Sequence record: NZ_CP054002.1
Origin: a plasmid
DNA length: 64,000 bases
Direction: 5' to 3' (one strand)
This document shows, piece after piece, positions 13,264 through 48,731 of the stretch (position 1 is the first letter of the stretch; each line of letters opens with the position of its first letter). Position numbers and translations under genes: made by a program. The notes below the pieces were generated by a model. The model made no database searches and was not told the origin of the DNA. It saw nothing but the letters and a program-made list of their open reading frames with translations.

Positions 13264-15075
13264 ATGAAGCTACAAGAGGTTCTAACAGAATATCAATATA
13301 ATAATGTCGGGCAATTTAGGGCGATTGCGGAAAGTTTAGGTTACAAAGAAGCCTATAACAAGGGTTCTTTGCTTTTTACCCGGAATGACGAAGTATTTCG
13401 TATCGATATGGATAAGATACGTTCACACACAAAGCGAGAACCGGATTTATCTGCGGAAAAGGCTTCTATGGATCGTGTTTGCCAGTTCTTTAATCGGGAT
13501 CAGGCTTTATCTCCCGACTATAAAAGCGTATTAAAAAATGAAGGGGTTGATATTGTTAACTGGGGTGATCTAAAAAATGATGCCAAAGATCGTTTTACTG
13601 TGATCGATCATAAAAATAAAATCTGTTATACCGGAAAAGAACTATATGAGTATGCTTTGCAAAATGGTTACTCGTTAGACGGGAAAGGCACAAAGTTAGA
13701 GAAGGGTGTATTATCCGGATTAATGGATATCAATGGTAAACCAGCTAAAGTTCGGTTGCATGAACACGGTACTTCTATTATATATAGGAAGGAAGCGTTA
13801 ACCATACCGGATCGCATTTACGGAAAGAAATTATCGAAGCAACAGAAGCAAGATCTACTTGATGGCAATGTGATAGTCTTGTCAACAAAAAAAGGAGATA
13901 TACTTCTTCAGGTCGATAAGGATCTCAACGCTGTGGTGGTACGTTCGGAAAAAGAATTGTCTGTTCCTGCTAAAATTGGAGATTACGAATTGACCGCAGC
14001 AGATAAGTATCTTTTAGCGAATGGTCATTCTTTAGATAACAAAATGATCCACACTCCTGAAGGTTACATAATTACAGATATAGCTATGCTTCCGGATAAG
14101 AAAGGATATGCTTTCTCAAACATCCAGAAAATATCGGAAACAAAGGCACAGCAGATTTTACAGGCAAGAGAAATGGCAAAGGATAAAGAGTATCTTAATG
14201 ATAAGCTAAAGGATATGCAGCGTACCGGAAAAATCGATATAGACGAGTTGAAGGATAAAAGGTATGAGCAATTAATAAACAGCCATTTTGCCACAGAACA
14301 TAAGGAATACCTATCTTATCTGAAAGATGAAAATCCGGATAAAAACTATAATTATGATCTTGAAGCACGCATTAGGTTAAAGGCTGGGGATATGTTAGAA
14401 AAAGAAGGAATAATCGCCAAAGGTACAACTGAAAAGGAATTGAAAGAAGAAGGCTTTAAAGTCGAGAAGATCCGGGAACAATATCAGGAGAAAGTAACGG
14501 GTAAGGATCCTGTTCCTGATCGAGATCTTGACAAGGAGTTAAGAGAAGCCGTTGTCAAGAATGACTATGAAAAAATAGCTAGTTTGAAAGAGGAAGGTTA
14601 CAAGCCTTCAGAGGAAGTTATTAGAGGTTTGGGACAAGATACAAAGATTGATCAGACGCAAGCTATCGTTATAGAAAAACTATTTGGGATGAAACCTGAA
14701 GTGCAAAAAGCGGAAGAAGTAACACAAGCAAAGGAAGAATCCAAAGAAGCAAAGGTAGAGCTTAATGCTGATCCTGCTAGTGCTAAGGTTTCTCCGGAAC
14801 TAGATAAAGAATTTAAAGAAGCAGTAGAGAAAGGCGATTTTGTAAAGATGTCACAACTGAAGGAACAAGGCTATCAACCTTCCAAAGAGTTGATTCAGTC
14901 TTTGAATGAAACTGCATCTGGCAATACGATGATAGCCGTTCAGAAGATATTTAATCTGAAAGGCTCTGCTAATACGCTCGGAGATGTTAAGCTAGCACAA
15001 GGTCAACAAAGTGCAGAAAAAGATCTAAAGCGTCCTCTCGCCAATACGGTAAATAAAATGTTTGCCGATTTATAA
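13264..15075 (+). CDS. 603-aa conjugative-element protein with two tandem copies of the shared ~55-aa C-terminal module
   Basis: Repeat 1 (...KNDYEKIASLKEEGYKPSEEVIRGL...IVIEKLFGMK) and repeat 2 (...KGDFVKMSQLKEQGYQPSKELIQSL...MIAVQKIFNLKGSANTLGDVKLAQG). Confidence 0.7.
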   Translation: MKLQEVLTEYQYNNVGQFRAIAESLGYKEAYNKGSLLFTRNDEVFRIDMDKIRSHTKREPDLSAEKASMDRVCQFFNRDQALSPDYKSVLKNEGVDIVNWGDLKNDAKDRFTVIDHKNKICYTGKELYEYALQNGYSLDGKGTKLEKGVLSGLMDINGKPAKVRLHEHGTSIIYRKEALTIPDRIYGKKLSKQQKQDLLDGNVIVLSTKKGDILLQVDKDLNAVVVRSEKELSVPAKIGDYELTAADKYLLANGHSLDNKMIHTPEGYIITDIAMLPDKKGYAFSNIQKISETKAQQILQAREMAKDKEYLNDKLKDMQRTGKIDIDELKDKRYEQLINSHFATEHKEYLSYLKDENPDKNYNYDLEARIRLKAGDMLEKEGIIAKGTTEKELKEEGFKVEKIREQYQEKVTGKDPVPDRDLDKELREAVVKNDYEKIASLKEEGYKPSEEVIRGLGQDTKIDQTQAIVIEKLFGMKPEVQKAEEVTQAKEESKEAKVELNADPASAKVSPELDKEFKEAVEKGDFVKMSQLKEQGYQPSKELIQSLNETASGNTMIAVQKIFNLKGSANTLGDVKLAQGQQSAEKDLKRPLANTVNKMFADL

Positions 15076-15317: not shown

Positions 15318-16628
15318 ATGGATGGTCAGGCAAATGATAAGGCTCTGCAAAAATTTGCGGATCTTATGGTTAAGAAACTTACGGAAGTCGATGCGGATTG
15401 GCATAAACCTTGGTTTACAACAACAGGATATGGATTACCACAAAATATTGATGGGCGTGTTTATAATGGAATCAATTCCTTCATGCTTTTTCTTCTTCAA
15501 GAGGAACGTAGTTTCCAGACACCTGTATATATGACTTTTCCGCAAGCAAAGAAACAAGGGCTTCACATAAACAAAGGAGCATCGGCTTTTCCTGTCCTAT
15601 TTTGGAATTTTATGATTAAAGACGATAAGGGGAATAAAATTTCGATGGATGATTATAAGGCTTTGACTAAGGAAGAGCAGAAAGAATATACCGTTATTCC
15701 TTATACTAAACCTTATCACGTGTTCAATGTTGATCAAACAAACTTTGCGGAAGTATATCCGGAACAATGGAAGGCATTGAAGGATAAATTTAGTTGTCCT
15801 AAATTGAAAGATGAGCAGGGAATGTTTTCATCGCCAGAGTTGGATCACATGATAAAACACGGTACATGGTTATGTCCTATTATTTCTTCTTTCTCTGACA
15901 AGGCTTTTTTTCGTCCTTCAGAGGACAAGATATATTTACCCCTTAAAGGTCAATTCTATACAGGAGAAGGATTTTATAGCACATTGTTACATGAGATGGC
16001 ACATTCAACCGGTATAGATACCCGTTTAGGACGTGAAATGAAAAACATGTTTGGTGATCCCAAATATGCAAAAGAAGAATTAATCGCAGAATTTACCGCT
16101 GCTGTTTCTTGCCGTTCTCTAGGTATCGTTTCCGGAGTCCGGGAAGAAAACGCACAGTATTTAAAAAACTGGCTCGGAGCGATCAAAAAAGAACCTAAAT
16201 TCCTCTATTCCGTATTAGTTGATGTAGGTAAGGCTAGCACTATGATTTTGAATGAAGTCTGCAAGTATGAGTTATTGAAGAAGGAAGAACAGGAAAAGCA
16301 ACAGGAAGAATGCAAGCATATAGAGAATAAAAAAGTAGATGATAGCAAGGATTTTTCTGAAACCCGGAATGATGAAAAATTATCACCAGCTTTTAATATA
16401 GCTCTAGCTGCTGCGCTAGCCGGTTCGTTTAAGGAATTGGTTAACCTAAAGGAGCAGGGATATAAACTGTCTGCAAAGGAACTTGATGCGTTAAAGGATG
16501 CAGATCCGAAAATATATATTGCCGCACAGAATATATTTAATATAAAGTTGGATGATCCTACTCCTTCCCTACAATTTTCCGAATCAAAAAATAAAAATGA
16601 AGTCAAACAATTATCTTTAAATTTTTAG
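15318..16628 (+). CDS. ardC: ArdC-like antirestriction protein: N-terminal ssDNA-binding domain plus HExxH metalloprotease, with the shared C-terminal module
   Basis: N-terminal WFTTTGYGLPQNIDGRVYNGINSFMLF matches the ArdC N-domain signature; LLHEMAHSTG zinc-metalloprotease motif; C-terminal ...FKELVNLKEQGYKLSAKEL... Confidence 0.8.
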   Translation: MDGQANDKALQKFADLMVKKLTEVDADWHKPWFTTTGYGLPQNIDGRVYNGINSFMLFLLQEERSFQTPVYMTFPQAKKQGLHINKGASAFPVLFWNFMIKDDKGNKISMDDYKALTKEEQKEYTVIPYTKPYHVFNVDQTNFAEVYPEQWKALKDKFSCPKLKDEQGMFSSPELDHMIKHGTWLCPIISSFSDKAFFRPSEDKIYLPLKGQFYTGEGFYSTLLHEMAHSTGIDTRLGREMKNMFGDPKYAKEELIAEFTAAVSCRSLGIVSGVREENAQYLKNWLGAIKKEPKFLYSVLVDVGKASTMILNEVCKYELLKKEEQEKQQEECKHIENKKVDDSKDFSETRNDEKLSPAFNIALAAALAGSFKELVNLKEQGYKLSAKELDALKDADPKIYIAAQNIFNIKLDDPTPSLQFSESKNKNEVKQLSLNF

Positions 16629-16631: not shown

Positions 16632-16928
16632 ATGTTTATAGGTCATGTTACGGGTTATCTTGGATCAGATGCCAAGAAAACACAGAAAGGTTATTCATTC
16701 AATGTTTCCACTAAATATAAAGAGGGAAACGAAGAAAAAACGTTGTGGATCTGTTGTTTCTTAAATTACGAAACAAAGGTTGCGGAGTTTTTAAAAACAG
16801 GAACTATGGTTCATGTGTATGGGGAAATCACTGTCGGTATCTTTAAGCGTGATACTGGTGATACAGTCCCTTCAGTAACTATGAGTGTAGATAAGGTTCA
16901 ATTACTCTCTAGCAAGAATAAAGAATAA
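16632..16928 (+). CDS. ssb: SSB-like single-stranded-DNA-binding OB-fold protein (98 aa)
   Basis: Pattern ...TLWICCFLNYETKVAEFLKTGTMVHVYGEI... resembles the SSB OB-fold core. Confidence 0.5.
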   Translation: MFIGHVTGYLGSDAKKTQKGYSFNVSTKYKEGNEEKTLWICCFLNYETKVAEFLKTGTMVHVYGEITVGIFKRDTGDTVPSVTMSVDKVQLLSSKNKE

Positions 16929-18883
16929 TGGAACCAGCAAAGAAGGAATTATCATTTGTCTTTATATTGCTTTCCGTAATAATCGGGGGTGTGATAATCT
17001 TTCAGTGGGTTTTGGTGAATGATCTTTGTTCACCAAGCCCAGCTGTATTATTGCAGTTGGGAAAGTTTTTACGCAAAGCTATTATGTTTCGATTCCTATA
17101 TGTAGTATTATTAGCTGGGTTGGCTTTCCTATTCCCTGTACAAAAGAGAAGAGATGAATCCTTGAAATATGTATATACTGCCACTACATTAATCTTAGCA
17201 ATAGCCCTAATATTAGGCTTCAGTAATGTTCTATCATGGTACAATTTATTAGTTTTTCCGATAGTATTTATAGGATTTACAATACTAGTTATCCAAACAG
17301 CCGGTTTTTACCTTAAACGGCATGTGGTATCTGATAAATCTATCTTTGGTGTATCACATGAAAAATCAGAGTTTTATTTTGATTTTGAAACAGTAGAAGG
17401 AAATCTTAGAATCCATAAGCCACAGCAAAATCTTTATATTGACGGTGGTCCGGGATCTGGAAAATCGGAAAGCTGGATTAAAGGCATCATCTATCAATGT
17501 GCAGAGCGTAACTATGCCGGATTTGTATATGATTGGGAAGGAGATCCTAGTAAACCGGGTTCACCTATTTTGTCCCGGATCGCATACGGTAGTATAGAAT
17601 ATTTTAAGAGAAAAAATGTACCTACACCAGCCTTTGCTTTCATAAATTTTGTAGACATGTCCCGGACGGTTCGTGTTAATGTACTTTCGGAAAAATATGT
17701 CCCTAAAGGAAGCGAATCCTTGTTTATTCGTAATATCGCTACTACCTTAATGAAAAACCTTGAAAGTTCATGGAAGGAAAAAACTGATTTCTGGGCGAAC
17801 AATGCGATTAACTATGTATATTCAATTGCTTATAAATGTTACAAAGAACGAGCAAAGGGAATAGGAACTTTACCCCATGTAATCGCTTTTGCATTATCAG
17901 ATAGTGATCTGGTCTTTAAATGGCTCTCTGAGGATGCGGAAATTGCGCTAAACATGTCTTCCATGTTAACCGCATGGCGTTTAGGCGCACAGCAGCAGAC
18001 CGCTGGTGCGGTATCTTCCGCACAGACTCCGCTTGTTTTGCTTAACAATAAATACATCTTTTGGGTTCTATCACCACTTCCGGAAGAAGAATATTCACTA
18101 GATATAACTAATCCGGATCATCCTACACTATTGTGTATAGGCAATGCTCCTTCAATTAAAGAAGCTGTATCTCCTCCTGTTAGTTGTATCGCTAGCGTTG
18201 TCATGTCGCAAATGAATAATCCCGGCAAACAAAAGAGCGTTTTTATGGTGGATGAATTTCCAACGGTAAATTTGCAAGGTATAGATGTATTTATAGGTAC
18301 AGCACGTAAACACAATGTAGCTACAATCTTAGCCGTACAGGACTTTAATCAAGCAATCCGGGATTATGGAGAGAAAAGTGCAAATATCCTGCGATCTTCT
18401 TGTGGTAGCCAAGCCTATGGAATGACCGGTAACGAAAAGACAGCAAAGGATCTAGAAAATCTTTTGGGAGAAACGAAAGAAGCACAGGAATCGTTCTCAC
18501 ATCAAGAATCCGGTACTGGAAGCATGACCGAATCTCTGCAAAAGGAGAAAGTAGTAAAGGCTCGTGAAGTTGCCGGACAAAGTGTTGGTCACTTCATCGG
18601 AAAGGTCGCTGGCGGAAAACCACCTTATTTTAATACACAATTTAATATGTGTAAGTTTATAGATAAGGATATTCCGGCTTTTTCCAAACCTGTAAATTTG
18701 GGAGATGGCAAAGAAGAATTAGAGTATGATATAATGGAAGAAATAGTTAGTCAACATTATCTTTCAATCATTTCAAAAGTAAATGCGATCTTGGAAGATG
18801 TAAAGAATAAGACAGAAACGGACAATAAAAATAAGGAAAAAAACATGCCGAAAGATCATAATCATAAGGCATGGAAGGAATAA
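16928..18883 (+). CDS. type IV coupling protein (VirD4/TraG/TraD family, 651 aa)
   Basis: N-terminal TM helices, P-loop GGPGSGKSES, Walker B-like FMVDEFP; identical copy at 43107..45062. Confidence 0.8.
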   Translation: MEPAKKELSFVFILLSVIIGGVIIFQWVLVNDLCSPSPAVLLQLGKFLRKAIMFRFLYVVLLAGLAFLFPVQKRRDESLKYVYTATTLILAIALILGFSNVLSWYNLLVFPIVFIGFTILVIQTAGFYLKRHVVSDKSIFGVSHEKSEFYFDFETVEGNLRIHKPQQNLYIDGGPGSGKSESWIKGIIYQCAERNYAGFVYDWEGDPSKPGSPILSRIAYGSIEYFKRKNVPTPAFAFINFVDMSRTVRVNVLSEKYVPKGSESLFIRNIATTLMKNLESSWKEKTDFWANNAINYVYSIAYKCYKERAKGIGTLPHVIAFALSDSDLVFKWLSEDAEIALNMSSMLTAWRLGAQQQTAGAVSSAQTPLVLLNNKYIFWVLSPLPEEEYSLDITNPDHPTLLCIGNAPSIKEAVSPPVSCIASVVMSQMNNPGKQKSVFMVDEFPTVNLQGIDVFIGTARKHNVATILAVQDFNQAIRDYGEKSANILRSSCGSQAYGMTGNEKTAKDLENLLGETKEAQESFSHQESGTGSMTESLQKEKVVKAREVAGQSVGHFIGKVAGGKPPYFNTQFNMCKFIDKDIPAFSKPVNLGDGKEELEYDIMEEIVSQHYLSIISKVNAILEDVKNKTETDNKNKEKNMPKDHNHKAWKE

Positions 18884-26522: not shown

Positions 26523-26589
26523 GACAGCCGAGCTGACGAGTGATGTTCGTTTCACTCACATACATTAGAATAGAGAATAGGAATATAGA

Positions 26590-28313: not shown

Positions 28314-28358
28314 TAACAAAATTGAATAGAAAATGCGCAAAAAAAGAAGCAAATTAGT

Positions 28359-28571: not shown

Positions 28572-28588
28572 CGTATAACGAATCGGAA

Positions 28589-28849: not shown

Positions 28850-28866
28850 TTTAAAACAAGTTAATC

Positions 28867-30485: not shown

Positions 30486-30495
30486 GAAGTTACTA

Positions 30496-31296
30496 ATGAC
30501 AAAAAAGAAATTGCCCGTTCGTTTTACGGGTCAGCACTTTACTATTGATAAAGTGCTAATAAAAGATGCAATAAGACAAGCAAATATAAGTAATCAGGAT
30601 ACGGTTTTAGATATTGGGGCAGGCAAGGGGTTTCTTACTGTTCATTTATTAAAAATCGCCAACAATGTTGTTGCTATTGAAAACGACACAGCTTTGGTTG
30701 AACATTTACGAAAATTATTTTCTGATGCCCGAAATGTTCAAGTTGTCGGTTGTGATTTTAGGAATTTTGCAGTTCCGAAATTTCCTTTCAAAGTGGTGTC
30801 AAATATTCCTTATGGCATTACTTCCGATATTTTCAAAATCCTGATGTTTGAGAGTCTTGGAAATTTTCTGGGAGGTTCCATTGTCCTTCAATTAGAACCT
30901 ACACAAAAGTTATTTTCGAGGAAGCTTTACAATCCATATACCGTTTTCTATCATACTTTTTTTGATTTGAAACTTGTCTATGAGGTAGGTCCTGAAAGTT
31001 TCTTGCCACCGCCAACTGTCAAATCAGCCCTGTTAAACATTAAAAGAAAACACTTATTTTTTGATTTTAAGTTTAAAGCCAAATACTTAGCATTTATTTC
31101 CTGTCTGTTAGAGAAACCTGATTTATCTGTAAAAACAGCTTTAAAGTCGATTTTCAGGAAAAGTCAGGTCAGGTCAATTTCGGAAAAATTCGGTTTAAAC
31201 CTTAATGCTCAAATTGTTTGTTTGTCTCCAAGTCAATGGTTAAACTGTTTTTTGGAAATGCTGGAAGTTGTCCCTGAAAAATTTCATCCTTCGTAG
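30496..31296 (+). CDS. ermF: 23S rRNA (adenine-N6) methyltransferase ErmF (MLSB resistance), 266 aa
   Basis: Protein from MTKKKLPVRFTGQHFTIDKVLIKD... matches ErmF as recalled; SAM-binding LDIGAGKG; the track start at 30439 is an in-frame upstream Met. Confidence 0.9.
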   Translation: MTKKKLPVRFTGQHFTIDKVLIKDAIRQANISNQDTVLDIGAGKGFLTVHLLKIANNVVAIENDTALVEHLRKLFSDARNVQVVGCDFRNFAVPKFPFKVVSNIPYGITSDIFKILMFESLGNFLGGSIVLQLEPTQKLFSRKLYNPYTVFYHTFFDLKLVYEVGPESFLPPPTVKSALLNIKRKHLFFDFKFKAKYLAFISCLLEKPDLSVKTALKSIFRKSQVRSISEKFGLNLNAQIVCLSPSQWLNCFLEMLEVVPEKFHPS

Positions 31297-31508
31297 TTCA
31301 AAGTCGGGTGGTTGTCAAGATGATTTTTTTGGTTTGGTGTCGTCTTTTTTTAAGCTGCCGCATAACGGCTGGCAAATTGGCGATGGAGCCGACTTTTAGC
31401 ACAAATGTTGAATAGAATTACTAATCTTCAACATTGCACAAAAGTTCAATAGAAGTACTTCACCGGCTCTATTGCCAATTTGTTTGTTATGTGCCGTTTT
31501 ATTCCATT

Positions 31509-32675
<1,167 letters not shown>

Positions 32676-33456
32676 TCAAAAATGGCCCATAACAATGGCT
32701 CGGCGAATTGGCGAAGTAGCGAAGCTGTATCGAAGATACAAAAGCGGAGCTATTTAGCCAAGTCGCTTGTTGTAAGCAGTCCGCGAAGCGGCGGCTTACG
32801 GCAAGCGACGTAAGTCGCCGAGCCATTGTTAGCAAGGAGCGCAGCGGATTGCTAACAACGGTTTGCAGCTATACGCAGGCAGGGATTTTTACCACTAAGC
32901 TACCTACGATGAACTGAACTTTAAATTTACCACTTTCCTGTCTTACGAAGCACGAACCCCCTGCTTGCGTATAGGTGATGTTATGCGGTCGGCTTTCATT
33001 TTCTCTTCTTTCTCGTTAATTTGTCAAGCAAAGTTACTAAATTTGCAGTCAAGCAATTTCAATTTTTGAATTATGTATTTCAGCAGACCTTGGACTTCTA
33101 TCTAAGTGATAGGCAGTCCTGAATAAATTCCAATCAATCTTTTAGGGCAAGACAATCAGTCTATGCTTTGTGTGTGCTGTCATTTTTTTTGATGGCATTG
33201 CTTTGTCGTAGTTGCTCTGTCGGGTAATACTGTCTATTCACTTCTCTGTGATTTGAATTCAAGGTATTACTAAATTAACCCCCTATAAGATAGAATTGTA
33301 AAGTTCTTTTCATCCGCAAAATGGAATGAATAGAACGTAATATTCATATTGTTAAAATCTATTAACGGGGGGGGGTAAATTCTAATTTGTATTTCTACAT
33401 GCTTTGAATAATAAAATATATACATATTTTTGAACCATTAAAATATAAACTTTATC

Positions 33457-33657
33457 ATGGAAAAAGCAAATATAGGATTTAAAGCCGGGATCATCTTAGA
33501 AAAATTAGGCGAAACCGGACTTATAACCATTGCCGAGCTTGCGAGAAGGCTAAATCTTGCGGCTGATGAAACCGCACTCGCCGCCGGGTGGCTCGCACGT
33601 GAGAATAAGATATACATCGAACGGCGAAACGGTTTGCTGTATATCAGGAAAGAGTGA
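33457..33657 (+). CDS. small winged-HTH-like DNA-binding protein (66 aa)
   Basis: Paralog of the next ORF (shared ...A(L/S)A(A/I)GWLARE(N/D)KI...). Confidence 0.4.
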   Translation: MEKANIGFKAGIILEKLGETGLITIAELARRLNLAADETALAAGWLARENKIYIERRNGLLYIRKE

Positions 33658-33779
33658 TACAACGTATCAAAAGGATAAACGATAAACGCTGGAATGTTTG
33701 CAGTGCGTAACACTATTGATGTAAAAGTGCTTTTCATTATCCATTTGAAACCATTTATAAACTTATAAAAAATACAGGT

Positions 33780-34016
33780 ATGGATAAGCACATCATCAGA
33801 GAGAACGCAGGGAAACTCTGGCGCTTATTAAGCACAGACGTACACCGGAAATGGAATTTGCAGGAAGTAAAGGAATTGACAGGGTTCAATGATCTGGAAG
33901 TCGCCAGTGCGATAGGCTGGCTCGCTCGTGAGGACAAGATTCAATTCGAGCTTGAACACCACGACACTAAGGATAAGAACGCATTACTATACCTTATGTT
34001 GAACGTCTATTTCTAA
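33780..34016 (+). CDS. small winged-HTH-like DNA-binding protein (78 aa), tandem paralog
   Basis: See previous feature. Confidence 0.4.
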   Translation: MDKHIIRENAGKLWRLLSTDVHRKWNLQEVKELTGFNDLEVASAIGWLAREDKIQFELEHHDTKDKNALLYLMLNVYF

Positions 34017-34039
34017 ACACCTCCCTTTGAATTGTAAAA

Positions 34040-34084
34040 GCCTCCGGCGGGGTTTTCGCCGGGGGGCTTCTTGCATTTGCATAT
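34040..34084 (+). repeat. 45-bp direct repeat, copy 1 (GCCTCCGGCGGGGTTTTCGCCGGGGGGCTTCTTGCATTTGCATAT)
   Basis: Identical copy at 35384..35428; contains a GC hairpin CCGGCG-N7-CGCCGG. Confidence 0.75.
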
Positions 34085-34360
34085 ATAACCTCAAAGGCAA
34101 GTCAAATCGGACGGGGTGGCGGTCGGACGGCTGAAAAGTCGAAAACGTAACACAGGCGTGTTACTACTTGTCTTTGACAAGGCATTTTTTAGGGGTGCTG
34201 GCATACAATCCGAAAGGGGCGGGAACGGCTGTTCCCGTTTGTTCTCCCTGCAACCTACAGGATATTAACCTTAAATCATTAAGTGATAAACACTATATTT
34301 AATAACCCCTTTTAGCCAACAAATTGTTATCTTTGCGTAGGGTAAACAAAAAATAAGCTT

Positions 34361-34804
34361 ATGAAAACTGCTATGGAAAAAAAAGAAACCGGCTTAATGA
34401 GACAGATCGGTTATCTCTCTTTTGTCGTTGTTTTGTTGTATGGGCTTACGCTATTTGCGGTTTCTTGTGACAATGATGAAGATCCTCCTCTTCCTCCCGC
34501 AGTGGAAAAAGTAGTGCTGGCATTTGGTGTGGATCAGGGTGAAGGTCAGCTTTCGGCTAAACCGGAGTTGGAAAATACGGCTGCGGAAAAGATAGGAGAA
34601 TTGATCTCTCCGGCTGAAATAGCGAAAGGCACAACGGTGCATTTTCGTGCTACCCATTCCAAATCATGGACAATCATGTATTGGAAAGTCAATGGCGTCA
34701 TTATTCGTTCTGTGGAGCCGGAGCAGACTTTCGTCATCGATGAGCATAAGGAGGTTCGGGTTGCTTTCAAGCCTTACAAGTCACCGGAACCGGAGGGGCT
34801 GTAA
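34361..34804 (+). CDS. lipoprotein (147 aa)
   Basis: TM or signal segment plus Cys (FAVSCDNDED). Confidence 0.45.
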   Translation: MKTAMEKKETGLMRQIGYLSFVVVLLYGLTLFAVSCDNDEDPPLPPAVEKVVLAFGVDQGEGQLSAKPELENTAAEKIGELISPAEIAKGTTVHFRATHSKSWTIMYWKVNGVIIRSVEPEQTFVIDEHKEVRVAFKPYKSPEPEGL

Positions 34805-34886
34805 AACAAACTGTGTCAGCAAAGCAATAAAATATTAATTTTGCTGACACAGTTTAATTGAATTCTCTTTTTGCTGTTCATTTGCT

Positions 34887-35192
34887 TTATTTCAGGACTT
34901 CGCCCTTCTCGTTGAAGAACACTTCGCTGTCCGTGCCTTCTGCATCGGTAAATGTCACCTTGTAGGTCTTTGTGCCTTCCTCGCTTTCCTCAACTGCGGC
35001 TTCCTTGATTGTCAGGTCTGCGAAATCCTTCTTGATCGTGTCCTGAACCGCCTGCGGCAGATCCTTTACCTCGATTGGCTTATAATCGTTCACCATTACC
35101 ACAATCTCAACATCCGATACCATGTTGCCGGCGAATGCCACTGAACTACCCAATCCCATAACAAGTGCTACTGCAAATAATACCTTTTTCAT
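34887..35192 (-). CDS. secreted small protein, PepSY-like fold candidate (101 aa)
   Basis: Signal peptide MKKVLFAVALVMGLGSSVAFA; short beta-rich body. Confidence 0.45.
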   Translation of the reverse strand: MKKVLFAVALVMGLGSSVAFAGNMVSDVEIVVMVNDYKPIEVKDLPQAVQDTIKKDFADLTIKEAAVEESEEGTKTYKVTFTDAEGTDSEVFFNEKGEVLK

Positions 35193-35383
35193 AATCCAAT
35201 CTATTTAAATATTTAACATATGGTTTCTGAAAGACAAAGAACAAACATTGTGCCAAACAAACAAACAAGTCATATATACCTGATAATCAAAAGCATACAA
35301 AAAACACATATATTTATTGAAGAACTGTTATCTGTGTATCATTTCCACATTTTGTGGAAACGATACACAGACTTTCTACAATT

Positions 35384-35428
35384 GCCTCCGGCGGGGTTTT
35401 CGCCGGGGGGCTTCTTGCATTTGCATAT
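35384..35428 (+). repeat. 45-bp direct repeat, copy 2
   Basis: Identical to 34040..34084. Confidence 0.75.
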
Positions 35429-35842
35429 CTATCAAAAAGAAAGCAATATCGGAGCGTTACACCATAAAAACAGCTAGCCGGTTATTACAAAATGATATTG
35501 CCACAGTTGAGCATAAGGACAGGTCCAGCTATAAAATGGAGTAGGAGAGTAGCAAAATGATATTTATGTTTTAGGCGTTCCCTTCGGTCAGGCTTTCCGC
35601 TTCTACATGGTAAACGCTTCAATCCTTAACGCATAATGCCCACCCACCCGAATAAGGTAGGCTATTTTCCGATTGATCGGTTCGGTGAGCCATCCGGTAA
35701 ACCGAATGACTTTCACCGATCCGAACAGTCGGAAAAGGAGTACCCGGAATAAACCTTTCCGGCTGATAGGTGCAAGCACTTACCAGCTGGAAAGATATAT
35801 TCCTGCATGGGTACTCCGGTAGCCGGTTGTTTGATCCCGTTA

Positions 35843-36766
35843 TTATACTTTCGGAAAAAATCTGTGTTTAGATACTTTTTCTGTGTTTAATCCTAGTTCT
35901 TTGCTATCGCTTTGGGCTAGTTTGATGTTGCTTAATCCGGGAGCATCAGAGGGCAGACCGAAGATCTTCTGGACTGCTATCATCGTTGGAGCCGGTGCGG
36001 ATCCTTTCAGGTTGTTTATCGCTTCCGGAGAAGGGATATATCCTTCATCCTTTAGGAAAGAGATCTGTGCAAAGTCATTTTTTTTTATGGCAAGAAAAAA
36101 GTCTTTTTCTTTTAGATATTGATCTACCATTTCTTTTAAATCATCTTTTACTAATGACCAGTAGTTACCCTTGAAGCAATCTATTCCTTCAGGTGATTCT
36201 TTTACAGAATCTATTTTTTGAAACCCATTTAATATACCTTCCTCTGTAACACTCCATTCGTTCCTTTTTATTCCCCAGTCGATCATATCTTTGAATGAAT
36301 ATTTTTCATTTAGTTCGTGGATATCCCAAAAGTCTTTTTGTCTTGGTTCTTCTTCTGTAATGGCAGATAGTTTCATGGCTGCTATTTCCCGTATGTCTGC
36401 TATTCGTATGTGGTCGATTTCTTGTATGGGGAAAATAAATTTTTCAGTATAGAAAAAATCGACTTTAATTTTGTCTATAGGGGAGTCCCCCATGTATAGT
36501 GTATATCCTAAAGCTGATGTGTCCAGAGAATCTGTATTCTCGGAATATGGAAAACTCCTTTGAATAAACTCTTTCATTTCTTTTGTATTCATGGTTCCAT
36601 AATCTATATCAGTGAATAAATCTATGTCAATAGATCTTCGATGTCCTAGTTGTAGGCTCAAACAGGTTCCACCTATAAGCGTGAAATCTTTAAAAATAGG
36701 ACTATTGACCAGCTTTTGCAGAGTTTCTTTTAATAAAGGAGAAACAGTTTCATAATGTAAGTTCAT
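35843..36766 (-). CDS. AbiEii/DUF1814-type nucleotidyltransferase fused to the shared C-terminal module (307 aa)
   Basis: NTase motifs LIGGTCLSLQLGHRRSIDIDLF; C-terminal ...KKNDFAQISFLKDEGYIPSPEAINNLKGSAPAPTMIAVQKIFGLPSDAPGLSNIKLAQ... Confidence 0.65.
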   Translation of the reverse strand: MNLHYETVSPLLKETLQKLVNSPIFKDFTLIGGTCLSLQLGHRRSIDIDLFTDIDYGTMNTKEMKEFIQRSFPYSENTDSLDTSALGYTLYMGDSPIDKIKVDFFYTEKFIFPIQEIDHIRIADIREIAAMKLSAITEEEPRQKDFWDIHELNEKYSFKDMIDWGIKRNEWSVTEEGILNGFQKIDSVKESPEGIDCFKGNYWSLVKDDLKEMVDQYLKEKDFFLAIKKNDFAQISFLKDEGYIPSPEAINNLKGSAPAPTMIAVQKIFGLPSDAPGLSNIKLAQSDSKELGLNTEKVSKHRFFPKV

Positions 36767-37311
36767 AGAATGTATTTTTGATAGTTATCGTTTCTTGTGT
36801 TACTATTCCATTTGTTTTTTATGTTGGGAATGACTTGTTTTATGGTTTCTATTCCATAGAACCGAATAATCTCCTTGATCTCGATATCGTTGCCATATTC
36901 AAAAGCCCGTTGTATAACCCATTCCTTGTTCCTTATCCAATTTATCTTATCTATTCGTGTGTCCCAAAATAATCCTTTACTTAGTTTAGATAAGTCAGGA
37001 TGTTTCTTTCGCTCTTCTTTCATTATGAAGGTATATATGTCATGGTTGGCTTGTATTTTAAAGAAAAAGCCTTCAATGTTTATGTTTAACGCTTTTTCTA
37101 TTGAAATGGAGGCTTTTATAGTGAATTTTCGTTCCCCTTTTATATAGTCACAAATACGTTGCGGATATTCATTTGACATATGCGCTAACTTTTTTTGAGA
37201 TATATTCCTTTTTTTAAGGATTACATCCAATATCTTACCTGCCGGAACATCTTCCATTGACAAGTATTTTTCATATTTTATATTCATAGGACTATAATTT
37301 TGTTTTGGCAA
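36763..37311 (-). CDS. HTH (XRE-like) protein, putative cognate antitoxin or regulator of the downstream NTase (182 aa)
   Basis: HTH ...ISQKKLAHMSNEYPQRICDYI...; 4-bp overlap with the NTase gene. Confidence 0.5.
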   Translation of the reverse strand: MPKQNYSPMNIKYEKYLSMEDVPAGKILDVILKKRNISQKKLAHMSNEYPQRICDYIKGERKFTIKASISIEKALNINIEGFFFKIQANHDIYTFIMKEERKKHPDLSKLSKGLFWDTRIDKINWIRNKEWVIQRAFEYGNDIEIKEIIRFYGIETIKQVIPNIKNKWNSNTRNDNYQKYIL

Positions 37312-37365
37312 AAATAATGACTCTTAATACAATAACCAAATTTGGTTATTGTTATTTTGGAAAAA

Positions 37366-38643
37366 TTATAATGCCTGCTCAATATTTTTCCCGATTGTTT
37401 GCCTATCATTTTGGGCTAGCTTTATGTCGCTTAGTCCGGGAGTATCAGAGAGCAGACCGAAGATCTTCTGGACTGCTATCATCGTTGGAGCCGGTGCGGA
37501 TCCTTTCAGTTCGTCTATTATTTTAGGGGAAGGGATATACCCTTCATCCTTCAGCCCGGCGATCCGGGTAAAATCGTTTTTTTTTATGGCATCTTGGAAC
37601 TCACATTCCTTGCCTTTTGATATGGATGCTTGTAGATCATCGTTCCAATCACTGTTTACCGATAACTCCACGTTAGGCAGTTGAAGAACTTTATCCTTCA
37701 GTTCTTCAACTGGCAGACCTTCAATATTGGGTAACTCTTGACCTTTTAAGAATGTATCTAGCTTCAGCGCATATTTATAGCCGTTGCTATCATTGTCAAA
37801 TATATAAGTAACCTGATCGGTTATATTATTAATATTTTGCTTTGACAGGAGCAGCTTTATAACGCCCATTTGTCCCTGTGTGATGTTCCCTTCAGTGCTG
37901 ATATATAAGATGTTCTTTTCGGTATTCAGAAGCTTCATTTGATAATGGGACGCAGCATCGATCATGCTTTCACTGATATATATATGCTCTATTGGTCTTG
38001 TCTTGTCATGCTTAGACACTACGATACTATCGTATTTGTTGCCTGATATGCCTTTGAAGCTCTTGCCGTCTTCAGGTCTTATCCCCCTTTGGGAAATACC
38101 CTGAAAGCCGTTTTGGTTAATAAGTCTGGTACAGGTATTATTATAGACTTTTCCATCTTTCCGGTGTTCCCTAGAGGTGAATACCCCGGAAAATACCGGT
38201 GAAGATAGTGTATCTTGAGTAATTCCTCTCTTTTGCAAGAAATCCCCTTGATAGGGTTTCAGTTGGCTGTTCAGGAACGCCAGCTGATTAGGATCTAGTT
38301 TTGCGTTGCTAACTCCAAACCGGCTATCTTGAGATAATACGACTTCTTTATTGTTTACATAGTTCTGAACGGCTTCCCCGGCTTCTCGCAGGCTAGGCAT
38401 TCTCCCGGTCTGGTCGTAGATATGCTTCTGCATTAGATCTATGATAGTCTTTCCTCGTGCTTCTCCGTGAACGTCCCAATAGGTATAGTAATCCTTACTA
38501 TTCTTCTTGATAATAACGGTATCGGATCCGTTGCTCATCTTAGGGGACGAGTTGGAAGATCCGGAAACAAACTTCCAGCCTAAATAGAGAAAAAACTCCG
38601 GAAGGGAAACATCCCTTTTCAGTTTGTCAAAGTCTACTTTCAT
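37366..38643 (-). CDS. Toprim-domain protein (primase/topoisomerase-like) fused to the shared C-terminal module (425 aa)
   Basis: Toprim-like acidic motifs (YISESMIDAAS ... IFDNDSNGYKYA); C-terminal ...KKNDFTRIAGLKDEGYIPSPKIIDELKGSAPAPTMIAVQKIFGLLSDTPGLSDIKLAQ. Confidence 0.6.
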   Translation of the reverse strand: MKVDFDKLKRDVSLPEFFLYLGWKFVSGSSNSSPKMSNGSDTVIIKKNSKDYYTYWDVHGEARGKTIIDLMQKHIYDQTGRMPSLREAGEAVQNYVNNKEVVLSQDSRFGVSNAKLDPNQLAFLNSQLKPYQGDFLQKRGITQDTLSSPVFSGVFTSREHRKDGKVYNNTCTRLINQNGFQGISQRGIRPEDGKSFKGISGNKYDSIVVSKHDKTRPIEHIYISESMIDAASHYQMKLLNTEKNILYISTEGNITQGQMGVIKLLLSKQNINNITDQVTYIFDNDSNGYKYALKLDTFLKGQELPNIEGLPVEELKDKVLQLPNVELSVNSDWNDDLQASISKGKECEFQDAIKKNDFTRIAGLKDEGYIPSPKIIDELKGSAPAPTMIAVQKIFGLLSDTPGLSDIKLAQNDRQTIGKNIEQAL

Positions 38644-38647
38644 AACG

Positions 38648-39865
38648 TCAGATTTTTAGGTTATTACTTTTATCTTTACCTAGCCCTACATTATCGCTTT
38701 GGGCTAGTTTGATGTTGCTTAATCCGGGAGCGTCAGAGGACAGACCGAAGATCTTCTGGACTGCTATCATTGTTGGAGCCGGTGCGGATTTTTTCAGCTC
38801 GTCTATTATTTTAGGGGAAGGGATATACCCTTCATCCTTCAGCCCGGCGATCCGGGTAAAATCGTTTTTTTTTATTGAATCTGAAAAAATAGAATCGGTT
38901 ATTTGTTGCTGTGTTCTTATGATGATAGGATGATCCTGTATGTTATTCAGGATCTCCTTATCAGAAAACAAAAGATCCGGCTTATATTTCCCAGCGTAGA
39001 AGTTTGACAGGTACAGTTCCTCTGAAGGCTCTAATTTCATTAGCGAAGATACGAAATCAGCCACCTTATCGTTGATCTCCTGCATGGGATATTTTCCGCT
39101 GTTGGTATGCATCATCGGAAGTAGCTGCTGCCTTATCTCCGTAAAGGTCACATTCTCTATGCTTTGTTTTGGATCAGCCTTTAACATTTCCTTATTCTCC
39201 GGATTGCCAAGAGAAGAGTAAAAAACAATGGATTTCCTTAAAAGATCCCTTTCTTCTTTGCTCGTCAATATATCAGAGGATGCAAGGGAGAAGAGGTCAT
39301 ATATATCTCTAGGCTTACATCTTTCATAGAACGCCTTTATCTTTCCTGCAAACAATTCGATAGGATTGACGTAGTTTACTACAAATGAAGTCTTGTTCTC
39401 TCTGATGAAGGGAAACTCAATAGATTTAACTTCCGGTTTGAATATATGGGATCGATTATGATAGTTTATATCTAGTTTTATCTTATCTCCGCTTCCTGTC
39501 ACCGTATTATAGTGCAAAGAGAGAGAATCTAGGGTAAAATTACTTCTTTCGGTCTTCCTATACCCGTTCTGCTGGAAATAGCTATCTAAAGCCTTGTTGA
39601 TTTGTTCTCTCTCCGCTAACATATCCTCTTTAGATACGTTTTTAGAGAAATCAAGATCCAGATCGACAGAAAGCCGGGGAAGATCGAAAACAAGCAGGTT
39701 TATAGCCGTTCCCCCCTTCAGTAACAATTTACCGCTAAACTCCGGCTGATTGTTAAGGTCATTGAGGATATTGGATAATCGCATAACTTTCTCTATTCCA
39801 GCAACCGTAAAATTATTTTCTTTTGCTAGTCTAGTGATTTCTTCTTGTGTATAATCAAAACTCAT
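38648..39865 (-). CDS. AbiEii-type nucleotidyltransferase toxin-like protein fused to the shared C-terminal module (405 aa)
   Basis: LKGGTAINLL...RLSVDLDLDF NTase signature; same C-terminal module. Confidence 0.65.
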   Translation of the reverse strand: MSFDYTQEEITRLAKENNFTVAGIEKVMRLSNILNDLNNQPEFSGKLLLKGGTAINLLVFDLPRLSVDLDLDFSKNVSKEDMLAEREQINKALDSYFQQNGYRKTERSNFTLDSLSLHYNTVTGSGDKIKLDINYHNRSHIFKPEVKSIEFPFIRENKTSFVVNYVNPIELFAGKIKAFYERCKPRDIYDLFSLASSDILTSKEERDLLRKSIVFYSSLGNPENKEMLKADPKQSIENVTFTEIRQQLLPMMHTNSGKYPMQEINDKVADFVSSLMKLEPSEELYLSNFYAGKYKPDLLFSDKEILNNIQDHPIIIRTQQQITDSIFSDSIKKNDFTRIAGLKDEGYIPSPKIIDELKKSAPAPTMIAVQKIFGLSSDAPGLSNIKLAQSDNVGLGKDKSNNLKI

Positions 39866-40604
39866 AATATACTCCTTTCTCTATTTCTTTCATTACATCT
39901 TTAGGCGCACATACATTCCATTCCTTGAAATAGGTATCACAACGGGAAGGATTTGTAAGGTAACTTGTTGTATTACCCATCTTCTTTTTACATACATCGA
40001 AGAACATATCCGATAGGTTTAGTTGTTCCTGAAGCTGGGACAGGATGAATCCTGTACGTTGATACAGGCTTTTCTTTTGGTATAGCTTCAGGCATTCTAA
40101 CATATCTTCTTCTATTACGGAATCCGGATCAACCTCGATTAAGGCAAATAACAGTTCTTCAATGCCACCGGCTAAGCCTATATTGTTTAAGCAGTCAATT
40201 ATGGTTTGGCTGATTGATGTAACCGTGATAGGATAGCCGGTATCTTTTTTTGTAACCAATGGTTTGTATATAAACTGCAAAGGCTTATATACATAACGCT
40301 GGTTCAGGTACTCAAAAGACCGGAAGGGAGTAGAACTGTGCACATAAAGCCAGTTAAATTCCTGTGTCTGTAACATATAGAACTCTAATGCAGAATGATA
40401 AGCTAGGCAACCATTATCAACGGAATTGCAAGCTATCTGATACTTGTTCTGTATGTTAGCCGGCAAATATACTCCCCGGCGAATATGTGATAACAAACCT
40501 CGCTTTTTCCAGTTGTAAAGACGGGATTTCATGGTGTTATATCCTACTGGTTGATCTATGCTTATCATGCCTGTTTCTTTATATTTAGATATTATATTAC
40601 TCAT
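39855..40604 (-). CDS. AbiEi-like antitoxin/transcriptional regulator (249 aa)
   Basis: Directly upstream of the NTase gene and overlapping it by 11 bp, as in abiEi-abiEii operons. Confidence 0.5.
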   Translation of the reverse strand: MSNIISKYKETGMISIDQPVGYNTMKSRLYNWKKRGLLSHIRRGVYLPANIQNKYQIACNSVDNGCLAYHSALEFYMLQTQEFNWLYVHSSTPFRSFEYLNQRYVYKPLQFIYKPLVTKKDTGYPITVTSISQTIIDCLNNIGLAGGIEELLFALIEVDPDSVIEEDMLECLKLYQKKSLYQRTGFILSQLQEQLNLSDMFFDVCKKKMGNTTSYLTNPSRCDTYFKEWNVCAPKDVMKEIEKGVYYEF

Positions 40605-40740
40605 TTTACTTAGAATTTATTTCAAAGATATCAAATTTGATAGTATTGAGCAAATTTCTAAGTATATTTTTTATATTTAAACTTGATATTATCAGTTAGT
40701 AGACAGATAATTAAGAATATACTTTCGGAAAAATATTCTC

Positions 40741-41340
40741 TTATCTTTTTCTGCCCTGTATGTTAATCCCTTCTATCCTTAGATACTTGTATAGGGTAGC
40801 TCTGGAAACTCCTACTATCCGGCAAACATCATCTATCGTGCCTATTTCATTTTGTAGATACTTGGTGTATTCTATAGCCGCTAGTTTAGCTTTCCTTTTA
40901 GCTTGATCTGTTAGACCGGGCTTGCGTCCTCCTATTCGTCCTTTTGCCTTTGCTGAAGTCAAACCGGCTATTGTACGCTCGGAAATTATATTTCGCTCCA
41001 TTTCTGCAATACAGCATAAAAGATGAAACGCAAACTTTCCGATTGGTGTTGATGTATTTAATTGCTCTGTTAGACTAATTAGAGCAATGTTTTTCTTTTC
41101 AAGAGCTTCTTGAAGTTTTATAAGTTCGCAGGTTCTTCTTCCTAATCGGTCTAGTTTCCACACGATAAGCTGATCTCCTGTTTTTAATTTTGCAATTAAA
41201 GCATCTAAAACAGGCTTATTTTTATTCTTTCCAGATATTTTTTCTTCACAGATGTGATCCACTCCGTATAAACGTAATGCGTCCAGTTGGAGATTTAAGC
41301 ATTGATCCGGAGTTGATACACGTGCATAACCATATTTCAT
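40741..41340 (-). CDS. second serine recombinase (resolvase/invertase family, 199 aa), distinct from the 195-aa copy
   Basis: GYARVSTPDQ catalytic motif; C-terminal HTH (VSRATLYKYL); start ~75 bp from the T-module IR at 41415. Confidence 0.85.
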   Translation of the reverse strand: MKYGYARVSTPDQCLNLQLDALRLYGVDHICEEKISGKNKNKPVLDALIAKLKTGDQLIVWKLDRLGRRTCELIKLQEALEKKNIALISLTEQLNTSTPIGKFAFHLLCCIAEMERNIISERTIAGLTSAKAKGRIGGRKPGLTDQAKRKAKLAAIEYTKYLQNEIGTIDDVCRIVGVSRATLYKYLRIEGINIQGRKR

Positions 41341-41414
41341 AATTTTTACGGCAAAAGTAGCACGTACATAGCCTTTGAAAAATATAGAGAAGGTGATTTT
41401 TGAATTTATTAAAA

Positions 41415-41435
41415 CGAACCTTTTTTTAAACTGAA
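41415..41435. repeat. 21-bp terminal IR of tra module copy B (end adjoining unique DNA next to recombinase 2)
   Basis: CGAACCTTTTTTTAAACTGAA, identical to 3594..3614. Confidence 0.85.
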
Positions 41436-46672: not shown

Positions 46673-46675
46673 GAC

Positions 46676-48726: not shown

Positions 48727-48731
48727 GACAA

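Follow-up and report, generated by a model that had tools for sequence, protein, structure and literature searches.

A C-terminal domain shared by AbiEii-type toxins and establishment proteins of a Bacteroides fragilis plasmid, a putative recruitment signal for the conjugative type IV secretion system

VbhT, in which a FicT toxin is joined to a BID domain, is a translocated substrate of a conjugative type IV secretion system (T4SS), and PezT-BID has been proposed to be another, on Rhizobiales plasmids (Harms et al. 2017, PMC5675462). The same authors suggested that a co-transferred toxin would set off addiction while transfer is under way, with no need for the recipient to express any gene (PMC5675462). 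The fusion of a toxin from a toxin-antitoxin (TA) pair to a conjugative T4SS signal is a known kind of arrangement. In Xanthomonas and Stenotrophomonas the C-terminal domain XVIPCD is recognised by the coupling protein VirD4 (PMC8740702, PMC6759196). Elsewhere, primases are among the plasmid proteins that conjugation systems transfer (PMC5675462, PMC8406263), and polyvalent proteins have been argued to enter with the DNA through the conjugation apparatus (Iyer et al., PMC5512222). Here we analyse two TA-like gene pairs in a 64-kb stretch of plasmid DNA (record NZ_CP054002.1; hereafter the window), which is longer than one full turn of a ~38-kb conjugative plasmid of Bacteroides fragilis. Each pair encodes an AbiEii-type nucleotidyltransferase (NTase), NT1 or NT2, that ends in a C-terminal module, here called the tag, which recurs on other proteins of the plasmid. 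The genes of the region are as follows.

39855..40604, minus strand: AbiEi antitoxin/regulator, 249 amino acids, untagged (PADLOC AbiEi profile PDLC02269, E 1.4e-77)
38648..39865, minus strand: NT2, AbiEii/DUF1814 nucleotidyltransferase toxin, 405 amino acids, C-terminal tag (Pfam AbiEii, 6.6e-26)
37366..38643, minus strand: Toprim-domain protein, 425 amino acids, C-terminal tag (Pfam Toprim_2, 6.7e-6)
36763..37311, minus strand: Xre-type helix-turn-helix (HTH_3) plus DUF6922 protein, untagged (Pfam DUF6922 2.6e-21, HTH_3 3.2e-6)
35843..36766, minus strand: NT1, small AbiEii-like nucleotidyltransferase, 307 amino acids as read, C-terminal tag (Pfam AbiEii, 2.1e-16)

All five open reading frames (ORFs) lie on the minus strand, those of the two pairs exactly where the first-pass annotation had placed them. 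Its description of two regulator-then-NTase pairs with overlapping stops and starts held for both, the AbiEi stop overlapping the NT2 start by 11 nt (ATGAGTTTTGA) and the HTH-DUF6922 stop overlapping the NT1 start by 4 nt (ATGA). Of the two regulators, which it called AbiEi/HTH, 39855-40604 is an AbiEi and 36763-37311 is not; the latter is the HTH_3 and DUF6922 protein, which is presumed to be the antitoxin or regulator of NT1. For 39855-40604, Pfam gave no significant match, only a faint one to AbiEi_4; the possibility that this protein is not an AbiEi was rejected on the full-length PADLOC match, in which residues 23-247 align to positions 26-249 of the 251 in the profile.

The tag is a module of ~75 residues common to NT1, NT2, the Toprim protein and an ArdC anti-restriction protein, and it occurs twice in tandem in a DUF3945 protein. 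Its copies were located with a profile hidden Markov model (HMM), and that on NT1 also by alignment with the related plasmid CP103200.1.

38651..38890, minus strand: tag on NT2, residues ~326-405 (HMM E 7e-29)
37369..37602, minus strand: tag on the Toprim protein (HMM E 2e-28)
35846..36103, minus strand: tag on NT1 (HMM E 2e-27)
13264..15075, plus strand: DUF3945 protein with two tag copies, 14539-14733 and 14812-15072 (HMM E 1.7e-24 and 4.4e-31); mirror copy 46918-48744, minus strand
15318..16628, plus strand: ArdC-N plus zincin metallopeptidase anti-restriction protein, tag 16401-16625 (HMM E 9e-19; Pfam ArdcN 3.9e-29, MPTase-PolyVal 5.5e-31); mirror copy 45365-46675, minus strand
16928..18883, plus strand: type IV coupling protein (T4CP), VirD4/TraG-like (Pfam T4SS-DNA_transf, TraG-D_C, TrwB_AAD_bind)

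The earlier observation that both NTases end in the same module was borne out at the DNA level: the NT1, Toprim and NT2 genes share ~190 nt at 84-92% identity (blastn E 1e-48 to 6e-71), while the remainder of each gene is unrelated. The ArdC and DUF3945 tags are 29-39% identical to the toxin tags, with eight residues invariant across the six copies. In each of the five non-redundant tagged proteins of the window, the last or only copy ends 10-25 residues ahead of the stop. Even with filters off, the tag profile detected no copy in the remaining ORFs of the window, the relaxase, AbiEi and the HTH-DUF6922 protein included. The coupling protein also matches the NCBIfam model Bacteroid_MobC (5e-76), at a score under that model's cut-off.

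No Pfam-A or NCBIfam model covers the tag region, and neither sequence nor fold placed the tag with the BID domain or XVIPCD. Identity of the tag with DUF3945, DUF4116 or DUF4099 was considered and rejected; in the 603-residue DUF3945 protein the Pfam DUF3945 match is confined to residues 174-206, and DUF4116 lies outside the tag in the carrier P0065. As the window contains 20-kb repeats, we also considered whether the repeated tags could be an assembly duplication. This was rejected, since the copies have diverged to 84-92% identity and are in frame in three genes; it is further excluded by their position within the unique core 26190-41393 and by the presence of two tags in an independent complete plasmid.

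Structural models were examined for the tag segment of the Toprim protein and for full-length NT2 (AlphaFold2, AF2). The Toprim segment has four helices at residues 2-48 (predicted local distance difference test score, pLDDT, 85-92) followed by a disordered tail; in the NT2 model, helices are predicted with confidence at 336-373, with disorder in the tail at 391-405. The weak structural matches of the tag model were mostly to ankyrin repeats. The prediction for the tag is thus a small domain of four helices, resembling an ankyrin hairpin, with ~25-30 disordered residues after it.

The distribution of the tag was determined by an exhaustive HMM search of 1.84 billion (1.84e9) representative proteins; this was used in place of a word-indexed protein search with the tag profile, which had returned only short fragments (38-145 amino acids) that were uninformative as to cargo. 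There were 106 carriers. Among those of at least 200 amino acids the tag ended no more than 40 residues from the C-terminus in 51 of 55 (median 21). Pfam annotation of 57 carriers gave DUF3945 (18), ART-PolyVal (5), LPD23 (5), AbiEii (4), ArdC-N with MPTase (3), DUF4116 (3), Toprim_Crpt (3), HipA_C, PBECR5 and others, so that the tag is joined to at least 10 distinct N-terminal Pfam families. The large carriers (869-1631 amino acids) are polyvalent proteins (ART-PolyVal, LPD23, PBECR5) with the tag at the extreme end.

Loci with the tag in species-representative genomes all contained the same conjugation module (10/10), and nine were from records that bear the names of gut Bacteroidales (Phocaeicola, Bacteroides, Tidjanibacter). 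The tenth (JAEWRE010000070.1) comes from a metagenome-assembled genome labelled 'Bacillota bacterium' with genes 50-72% identical to those of the Bacteroidales module; the label is probably a binning error and not a sign of spread across phyla. Most tagged-gene contexts examined belong to one family of Bacteroidales conjugation modules, and runs of tagged genes abut the T4CP gene: one locus (L019) has five consecutive tagged genes directly upstream of genes for a protein like SSB (which binds single-stranded DNA) and for the coupling protein, and another (L018) has four. The order DUF3945-ArdC-SSB-T4CP is common to the window and to pMMCAT, a plasmid of B. uniformis.

In PLSDB, 28 plasmids carry the tag, and in 21 of them, largely ~98-kb pMMCAT plasmids, the annotation at the matched position reads 'HipA family toxin'. 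On pMMCAT (NZ_CP072241.1, 7305-9237) an HTH gene overlaps the gene for a 529-residue HipA that ends in the tag (~75 residues). Two tags are found on the DUF3945 protein of pMMCAT and a weak one on its ArdC. pMMCAT has been found experimentally to be conjugative, and its describers mention five TA 'addiction' pairs and no tag-like domain (bioRxiv 10.1101/2024.04.29.590671). The same plasmid record also has, at 11307-11570, an unannotated 88-residue ORF that consists of the tag and lies downstream of a second, untagged HipA gene; a metagenome contig (L017) likewise has a free-standing tag ORF just downstream of a HipA gene.

The first-pass annotation held that canonical AbiEii proteins lack the extension, and the closest untagged relatives are indeed ~325 amino acids long for NT2 and ~222 for NT1. 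Homologues at least 67% identical to NT2 have 404-405 amino acids and are tagged; the bulk, at 45-60% identity, have ~321-330 and are untagged. Homologues at least 90% identical to NT1 have ~299-308 amino acids and are tagged, and those at 50-77% identity are mostly ~222 amino acids long and untagged. One possibility is that the pairs are plain anti-phage AbiE defence cargo in which the extension is a phage-sensing or regulatory domain specific to the NTases. PADLOC recognises both components of the first pair very strongly, and AbiE is an established abortive-infection system (PMC3985639). However, the extension is also found on ArdC, Toprim, DUF3945, polyvalent ADP-ribosyltransferase (ART) and HipA proteins and so is not NTase-specific, and the bulk of close AbiEii homologues, chromosomal ones included, are without it. 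The distribution of the tag across protein families largely refutes this explanation, which we regard as highly improbable.

A different C-terminal extension of ~60-70 amino acids, which we call type B, was seen on six NT2-like proteins (P0153, P0171, P0174, P0205, P0206 and P0208) and on the NT1-like P0318. Its rough pattern is ..H[FY]V[KR]C.I.G..Q......S..D...Y..G.[IL][ST]K..L..KY[FY].., and it is absent from Pfam. One type B AbiEii gene (locus L014, 3108-4241) adjoins genes for PcfK/PcfJ, RadC, SSB and a resolvase, typical accessory genes of conjugative elements. Type B may be the counterpart tag of another transfer system; a type B profile found no further carriers among the sequences collected for this analysis.

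Because the tag is strictly C-terminal and modular, has a disordered tail, lies beside the coupling-protein gene and is found with one T4SS lineage, and because it is carried by establishment and anti-defence proteins and by toxins but not by antitoxins, we hold it somewhat likelier than even that the tag is a substrate-recruitment (translocation) signal of the Bacteroidales conjugative T4SS, and that the toxins would be co-transferred effectors. The suggested layout, a folded helical mini-domain followed by a disordered C-terminal tail, is seen in other T4SS signals. A distant clade of tagged AbiEii proteins (P0061, P0207, P0211 and P0213) shares 38-40% identity with NT2 in the catalytic domain and 48-59% in the tag. 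The tag is thus retained on AbiEii orthologues with catalytic domains down to 38% identity, and P0061 (locus L012) shares the synteny of the window: TraG-ATPase, TraO, resolvase, a 254-residue partner, tagged AbiEii and tagged Toprim. It is also present on an unrelated toxin family, the HTH-paired HipA of pMMCAT. The first-pass annotation had proposed that the fusion couples these NTases to the conjugation machinery, and this gains comparative support from the other tagged proteins and from the conjugation-module context.

The arrangement resembles the FicT-BID and PezT-BID fusions in several respects. In both, the C-terminal module of the toxin is common to other substrates (here putative) of the plasmid's own T4SS, the module is absent from the antitoxin, conjugation genes adjoin the gene pair, and fusion has occurred repeatedly across toxin families (here two AbiEii subfamilies and HipA); the proposed role, addiction beginning during transfer, is also the same. 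Like the tag, XVIPCD is found at the C-terminus of many toxic N-terminal domains whose cognate immunity or antitoxin gene adjoins (PMC8740702, PMC6759196). XVIPCD differs in being longer (~120 amino acids) and in belonging to a bacteria-killing T4SS and not to a conjugation system; conversely, the tagged set includes non-toxic establishment proteins, and no similarity in sequence to XVIPCD was detected for the tag (no Pfam match in the tag). The Sog/TraC primases and the 'conjutome' of pED208 (PMC8406263, PMC11288057) offer a further parallel, in that anti-restriction, ssDNA-binding, primase and host-modifying enzymes reach the recipient before gene expression, and the tagged set overlaps that repertoire in ArdC, Toprim, ART-PolyVal and PBECR proteins. 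In contrast to the tagged set, substrates in the conjutome and polyvalent systems have no common signal domain. Polyvalent proteins fuse their activities in one giant polypeptide, whereas here separate proteins each bear the same tag.

The same evidence can be read in another way, with the tag as an intracellular docking module that acts only in the donor and tethers its bearers to a scaffold, located at the transfer apparatus or the relaxosome, such as the DUF3945 protein. The pairs would then be ordinary plasmid-addiction or abortive-infection modules, and the conjugation machinery would simply be where the toxin is localised or regulated; a failed mating or an attack by a pilus-specific phage might, for example, activate it. 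The helical-hairpin model of the tag, with its weak matches mostly to ankyrin repeats, which are classic protein-protein interaction modules, is in keeping with this, as are the absence of a tag from the relaxase and the scaffold-like character of DUF3945, the commonest carrier, with its two tandem copies. The authors of the pMMCAT study, too, treat its TA pairs as addiction modules (bioRxiv 10.1101/2024.04.29.590671). Docking, however, would require neither a strict C-terminal position nor a disordered tail; the cargo (ArdC, primase-like, and ART/RNase polyvalent proteins) would be useful in the recipient and not in the donor (PMC5512222); and it is the toxins that are tagged, not the antitoxins. 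On balance we judge docking unlikely.

Several observations weigh against recruitment by the T4SS. The relaxase, the one obligatory T4SS substrate, is untagged, and the tag is therefore not the sole signal. In a closely related integrative and conjugative element (ICE)/plasmid family (L002-L009) the Toprim orthologue is untagged (349 amino acids in L004-L006, L008 and L009) and ArdC is untagged or at most weakly tagged; the tag is therefore dispensable for those proteins. The tagged protein P0091 lies on an 8.5-kb contig (L017) with no tra genes visible. Synonymous and non-synonymous changes are about equally frequent among the three near-identical tags. The secretion, the receptor and the effect in the recipient are parts that we infer, the export and the link between tag and coupling protein resting on comparison. 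Two further points concern the biochemistry of the toxins. AbiEi neutralises AbiEii through an induced covalent autophosphorylation (bioRxiv 10.64898/2026.01.19.700257), and a toxin made in an antitoxin-replete donor might be inactive on arrival unless it was exported before modification or dephosphorylated. A toxin that blocks translation would, moreover, hinder the making of the rescuing antitoxin as well.

By analogy with MenT and AbiEii, the two toxins would stall translation through nucleotide addition at the 3′ ends of tRNA (PMC7450476, bioRxiv 10.64898/2026.01.19.700257). AbiEii proteins are defined by motifs I/II, hG[GS]x(9-15)DhD plus Arg; III, KLxAaxxR; and IV, +DxxD (Dy et al., PMC3985639). 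The comparison with AbiEi and AbiEii profiles that the first-pass annotation had asked for gave PADLOC E-values of 1.7e-98 for NT2, 1.9e-8 for NT1 and 1.4e-77 for 39855-40604. NT2 scored 92 bits against Pfam PF08843 (cut-off 22.5), and its residues 4-321 span the whole 306-position PADLOC AbiEii profile (PDLC02305); since that profile is fully used by these residues, residues 322-405 are an addition. Motifs I and II of NT2 read KGG(51-52)...R64-L-S66-V-D68-L-D70, motif III K175-IKAFYE-R182 and motif IV R-D187-IY-D190. An alignment of 58 homologues shows no variation at G51, G52, R64, S66, D68, D70, K175, R182 or D190, while at least 90% of them keep D187. Ser66 lies two residues before the first catalytic Asp, at the position of the phosphoacceptor T65 of Streptococcus agalactiae AbiEii (bioRxiv 10.64898/2026.01.19.700257). 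The AF2 model of NT2 (pLDDT 87.5; predicted template modelling score, pTM, 0.85) gave as its best PDB match in a fold search MenT4 (6y56; E 5.6e-8, TM score 0.64 by target), with MenT3/TglT also found; a sequence search of PDB chains with NT1 and NT2 returned nothing significant.

NT1 scored 61 bits against Pfam AbiEii. Its motifs are GG32-33, R43, S45, D47xD49, K132-L-S-A and K-D145-FW-D148; the arginine at +7 of motif III is replaced, so that this motif is present only in part. Loss of catalytic residues, which the first-pass annotation had raised as an objection, was not seen, the arginine of NT1 being the only one missing. With all four AbiEii motifs, a phosphoacceptor serine and a predicted MenT4/MenT3 fold in NT2, both toxins look active as judged from their sequences and the NT2 model. 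The pairs share with AbiE of S. agalactiae and MenAT of Mycobacterium tuberculosis a bicistronic, overlapping antitoxin-then-toxin operon, the DUF1814 NTase motifs I-IV and, two residues ahead of the first catalytic Asp, a phosphoacceptor Ser/Thr, and NT2 also shares the AbiEi partner and the MenT-like fold. Unlike NT1 and NT2, the characterised members lack a C-terminal extension; they serve phage defence or growth control within the cell that makes them. NT1 differs further in its Xre-HTH/DUF6922 partner and in lacking the motif III arginine. An untagged NT1 homologue, P0283 (222 amino acids), overlaps by 4 nt a 171-residue HTH_3 plus DUF6922 gene beside an integrase and far from tra genes. 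The HTH-DUF6922/NTase pair therefore stands as a conserved two-gene module by itself. The tagged NT1 homologue P0268 belongs to the same module, with its 4-nt overlap.

The NT1 ORF reads as first annotated, but its true end is probably ~8 codons before the annotated stop. An A5 run at 35876-35880 of the window is A6 in the sister plasmid CP103200.1, and the tail at 35871-35881 (minus strand) reads ...TEKVSKHRFFPKV in place of ...TEKSI; the closest database homologues have 299 amino acids and end in ...TEKSI or ...IEKGI. The difference is either a sequencing error or a real change at the extreme C-terminus of a putative secretion signal. The HTH-DUF6922 gene may itself start at the ATG at 37287.

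If the tag is a T4SS recruitment signal, events could run as follows. The tag would be read by the coupling protein encoded at 16928-18883 (most likely) or by an adaptor, and the tagged set (ArdC, the primase-like Toprim protein and the DUF3945 protein, and in relatives the polyvalent ADP-ribosyltransferase/RNase proteins) would be sent into the recipient with the DNA strand. Two AbiEii-family nucleotidyltransferase toxins would have been recruited into this transferred set. In the donor, untagged AbiEi would bind NT2 and bring about autophosphorylation at Ser66, which would neutralise the toxin; NT1 would be the target of the HTH-DUF6922 protein, and both partners would probably repress their own operons at upstream palindromes. 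In the recipient, the toxin would arrive without its antitoxin, add nucleotides to tRNA 3′ ends and halt translation, and growth would return only once the plasmid was established and the antitoxin expressed. Such 'addiction at entry' would penalise recipients that destroy the incoming DNA.

The DNA that encodes the tag has a separate role, as a homologous-recombination handle for the gain, loss and swap of toxin cassettes. Relative to CP103200.1 (33,962 bp; L001) the window has ~1.3 kb extra in this region: 33261-36092 aligns with L001 10847-13683, and 37395-41421 with L001 13488-17513. The lone Toprim tag of L001 thus has two counterparts in the window, on NT1 and on Toprim, and aligns with each. 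In a five-way DNA alignment, it follows the window Toprim tag at its head and then changes over to the window NT1 tag for its tail and downstream flank; the change-over lies in a 28-nt stretch identical in both window tags (ATAGCAGTCCAGAAGATCTTCGGTCTGC). The HTH-NT1 cassette was therefore inserted or deleted by homologous recombination between tags. Heads and tails of tags are also mosaic among database fragments, and the identities of N-terminal domain and tag are decoupled (73% and 43% for P0064, 38% and 59% for P0211). The slot between the resolvase and Toprim genes holds AbiEi/NT2 in the window, L001 and L012, and an HTH-DUF6922/NT1-like pair in L025 and L026; in these related plasmids it is filled by the tagged NT1 homologue P0268 (catalytic domain 78% identical) and its HTH-DUF6922 partner. 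Mosaic tags, decoupled identities and slot swapping fit repeated tag-mediated cassette exchange. Polymorphic toxins of the rhs and contact-dependent inhibition (CDI) type similarly have a delivery-related segment that doubles as a recombination site for toxin-immunity cassettes; in those the conserved part is N-terminal, the toxin C-terminal and the immunity gene downstream, whereas here the conserved part is C-terminal, the antitoxin gene upstream and the delivery system putatively a conjugative T4SS.

Alternatively, the tags on the toxins could matter mainly at the level of DNA, as a ~190-bp recombination handle whose peptide is neutral for the NTases, whatever its effect on DUF3945 or ArdC, the pairs being standard AbiE-type TA or anti-phage modules. 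The three core tags are 84-92% identical in DNA and in direct orientation; the HTH/NT1 cassette differs from the sister plasmid by an exact tag-tag crossover, and database heads and tails are mosaic. Codon differences among the NT1, Toprim and NT2 tags are synonymous and non-synonymous in a ratio of about 1:1, so that purifying selection between recent copies is not demonstrated. Against this, tagged AbiEii proteins with catalytic domains 38% identical keep a full-length, in-frame tag with its hydrophobic and GY-PS pattern. The ArdC and DUF3945 tags, for all their divergence, retain eight invariant residues, which points to selection at the protein level, and HipA holds a tag so divergent (39% identity) that it could not recombine with the toxin tags. 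We consider a purely DNA-level role distinctly unlikely, and return to recruitment of the tagged proteins by the T4SS as the preferred reading.

The surrounding sequence contains candidate control sites for both pairs.

40607..40664: 58-nt palindrome, imperfect, just upstream of the ATG of AbiEi (repeat search: arms of 33 nt that overlap, 79% complementary)
37329..37352: perfect 12+12 palindrome, ACAATAACCAAA/TTTGGTTATTGT, spacerless and 100% complementary, between the Toprim stop and the HTH gene
40741..41340, minus strand: serine recombinase (resolvase/invertase; Pfam Resolvase, 7e-39)

The Bacteroides promoter consensus is TAnnTTTG. The palindrome at 40607..40664 is a candidate AbiEi operator overlapping a Bacteroides-type -7 box (TATCTTTG), the putative operator role being suggested because AbiEi autoregulation is known (PMC3985639). 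That at 37329..37352 is a candidate operator for the Xre-type HTH protein. The Toprim gene is placed between the two pairs, and as its ATG lies 4 nt past the NT2 stop (38643-38648), AbiEi, NT2 and Toprim probably form one operon; the primase-like Toprim gene may then be driven by the TA promoter. The order resolvase-antitoxin-toxin(tag)-Toprim(tag) is kept in the diverged plasmids L012, L025 and L026, and the serine recombinase gene borders the toxin slot in every related plasmid examined (L001, L012, L025 and L026).

The window matches the complete circular plasmid CP103200.1 and CP103219.1 at 97.5-99.8% identity, segment by segment. On self-comparison, 1-20596 is the reverse complement of 41394-62041 and 20555-26189 is repeated at 58379-64000; the toxin region lies within the unique core. 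The transfer module is of the Bacteroidales type, with TraO, a DUF3875/TraG-type ATPase (from the annotation of L001), and TrbL-like and DUF4138/TraN-like proteins. The plasmid also encodes the DUF3945 protein, ArdC, SSB, the VirD4-like coupling protein, Rep, ParA, MobC and a relaxase. Other features between the unique core's start and the toxin region are listed below.

30439-31296: erm(F) (NCBIfam 612 bits, cut-off 575)
31509-32675: tet(X) (NCBIfam 861 bits, cut-off 750)
33457-33657 and 33780-34016, plus strand: two small adjoining genes for winged-helix proteins of the DUF2582 family (Pfam 1.4e-23 and 8.6e-21), past the resistance insertion and before the toxin region

The segment 30474-33261 is an insertion relative to CP103200.1 with the resistance genes erm(F) and tet(X), and the plasmid is therefore a carrier of macrolide and tetracycline resistance. 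A ~17-kb segment of transfer genes (L001 17497-33962 plus 1-548) occurs in both orientations within the window. The inversion junctions (3600-3614, 41394-41421 and 58379-58393) share AACGAACCTTTTTTTAAACTGAA in inverted orientation, beside an invertase-type serine recombinase, and L001 lacks part of one junction site. The inversion of this whole T4SS block could be recombinase-driven and captured in a multimer, or the assembly may have merged two orientation states into a chimera. Internal repeat units of ~60 bp at 22814-22996 (also at 1218-1395 and 60633-60814), just downstream of the Rep gene (21584-22777), were seen as offset self-matches of ~120 bp with 84-88% identity; these may be iterons.

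We found no description of the tag in the literature on DUF3945, DUF6922, Bacteroides T4SS signals or pMMCAT, and our literature search returned no described protein-substrate signal for Bacteroidota conjugation systems. The tag family, its occurrence in Bacteroidales and the toxin families that bear it (two AbiEii subfamilies and HipA) appear undescribed in the sequence libraries and papers that we searched, as do the operon-scale tagged set beside the T4CP gene and the use of tag DNA as a cassette-exchange site. We put at a little under even the broader proposition that conjugative plasmids and ICEs of gut Bacteroidales have a hitherto unrecognised, dedicated T4SS targeting domain that defines an injected set including growth-arresting toxins of at least two families, AbiEii nucleotidyltransferases and HipA kinases, that such toxins are routinely delivered among gut commensals and enforce establishment or punish plasmid-degrading recipients, that the tag DNA is the site of cassette exchange between elements, and that type B is perhaps the tag's equivalent in another T4SS lineage.

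Conjugation in Bacteroidota is a driver of very extensive gene flow in the human gut, including the dissemination of antibiotic resistance, and this tag also occurs on pMMCAT, among the most pervasive of human-gut plasmids. A compact tag would make the Bacteroidales 'conjutome' predictable from sequence, and would provide an experimental handle and possibly a tool for protein delivery between gut bacteria. If AbiEii and HipA toxins are indeed injected, TA modules would be weapons at entry, beyond their part in post-segregational killing, and this would bear on the host range of plasmids, on what restriction and CRISPR defence cost recipients, and on the persistence of resistance plasmids.

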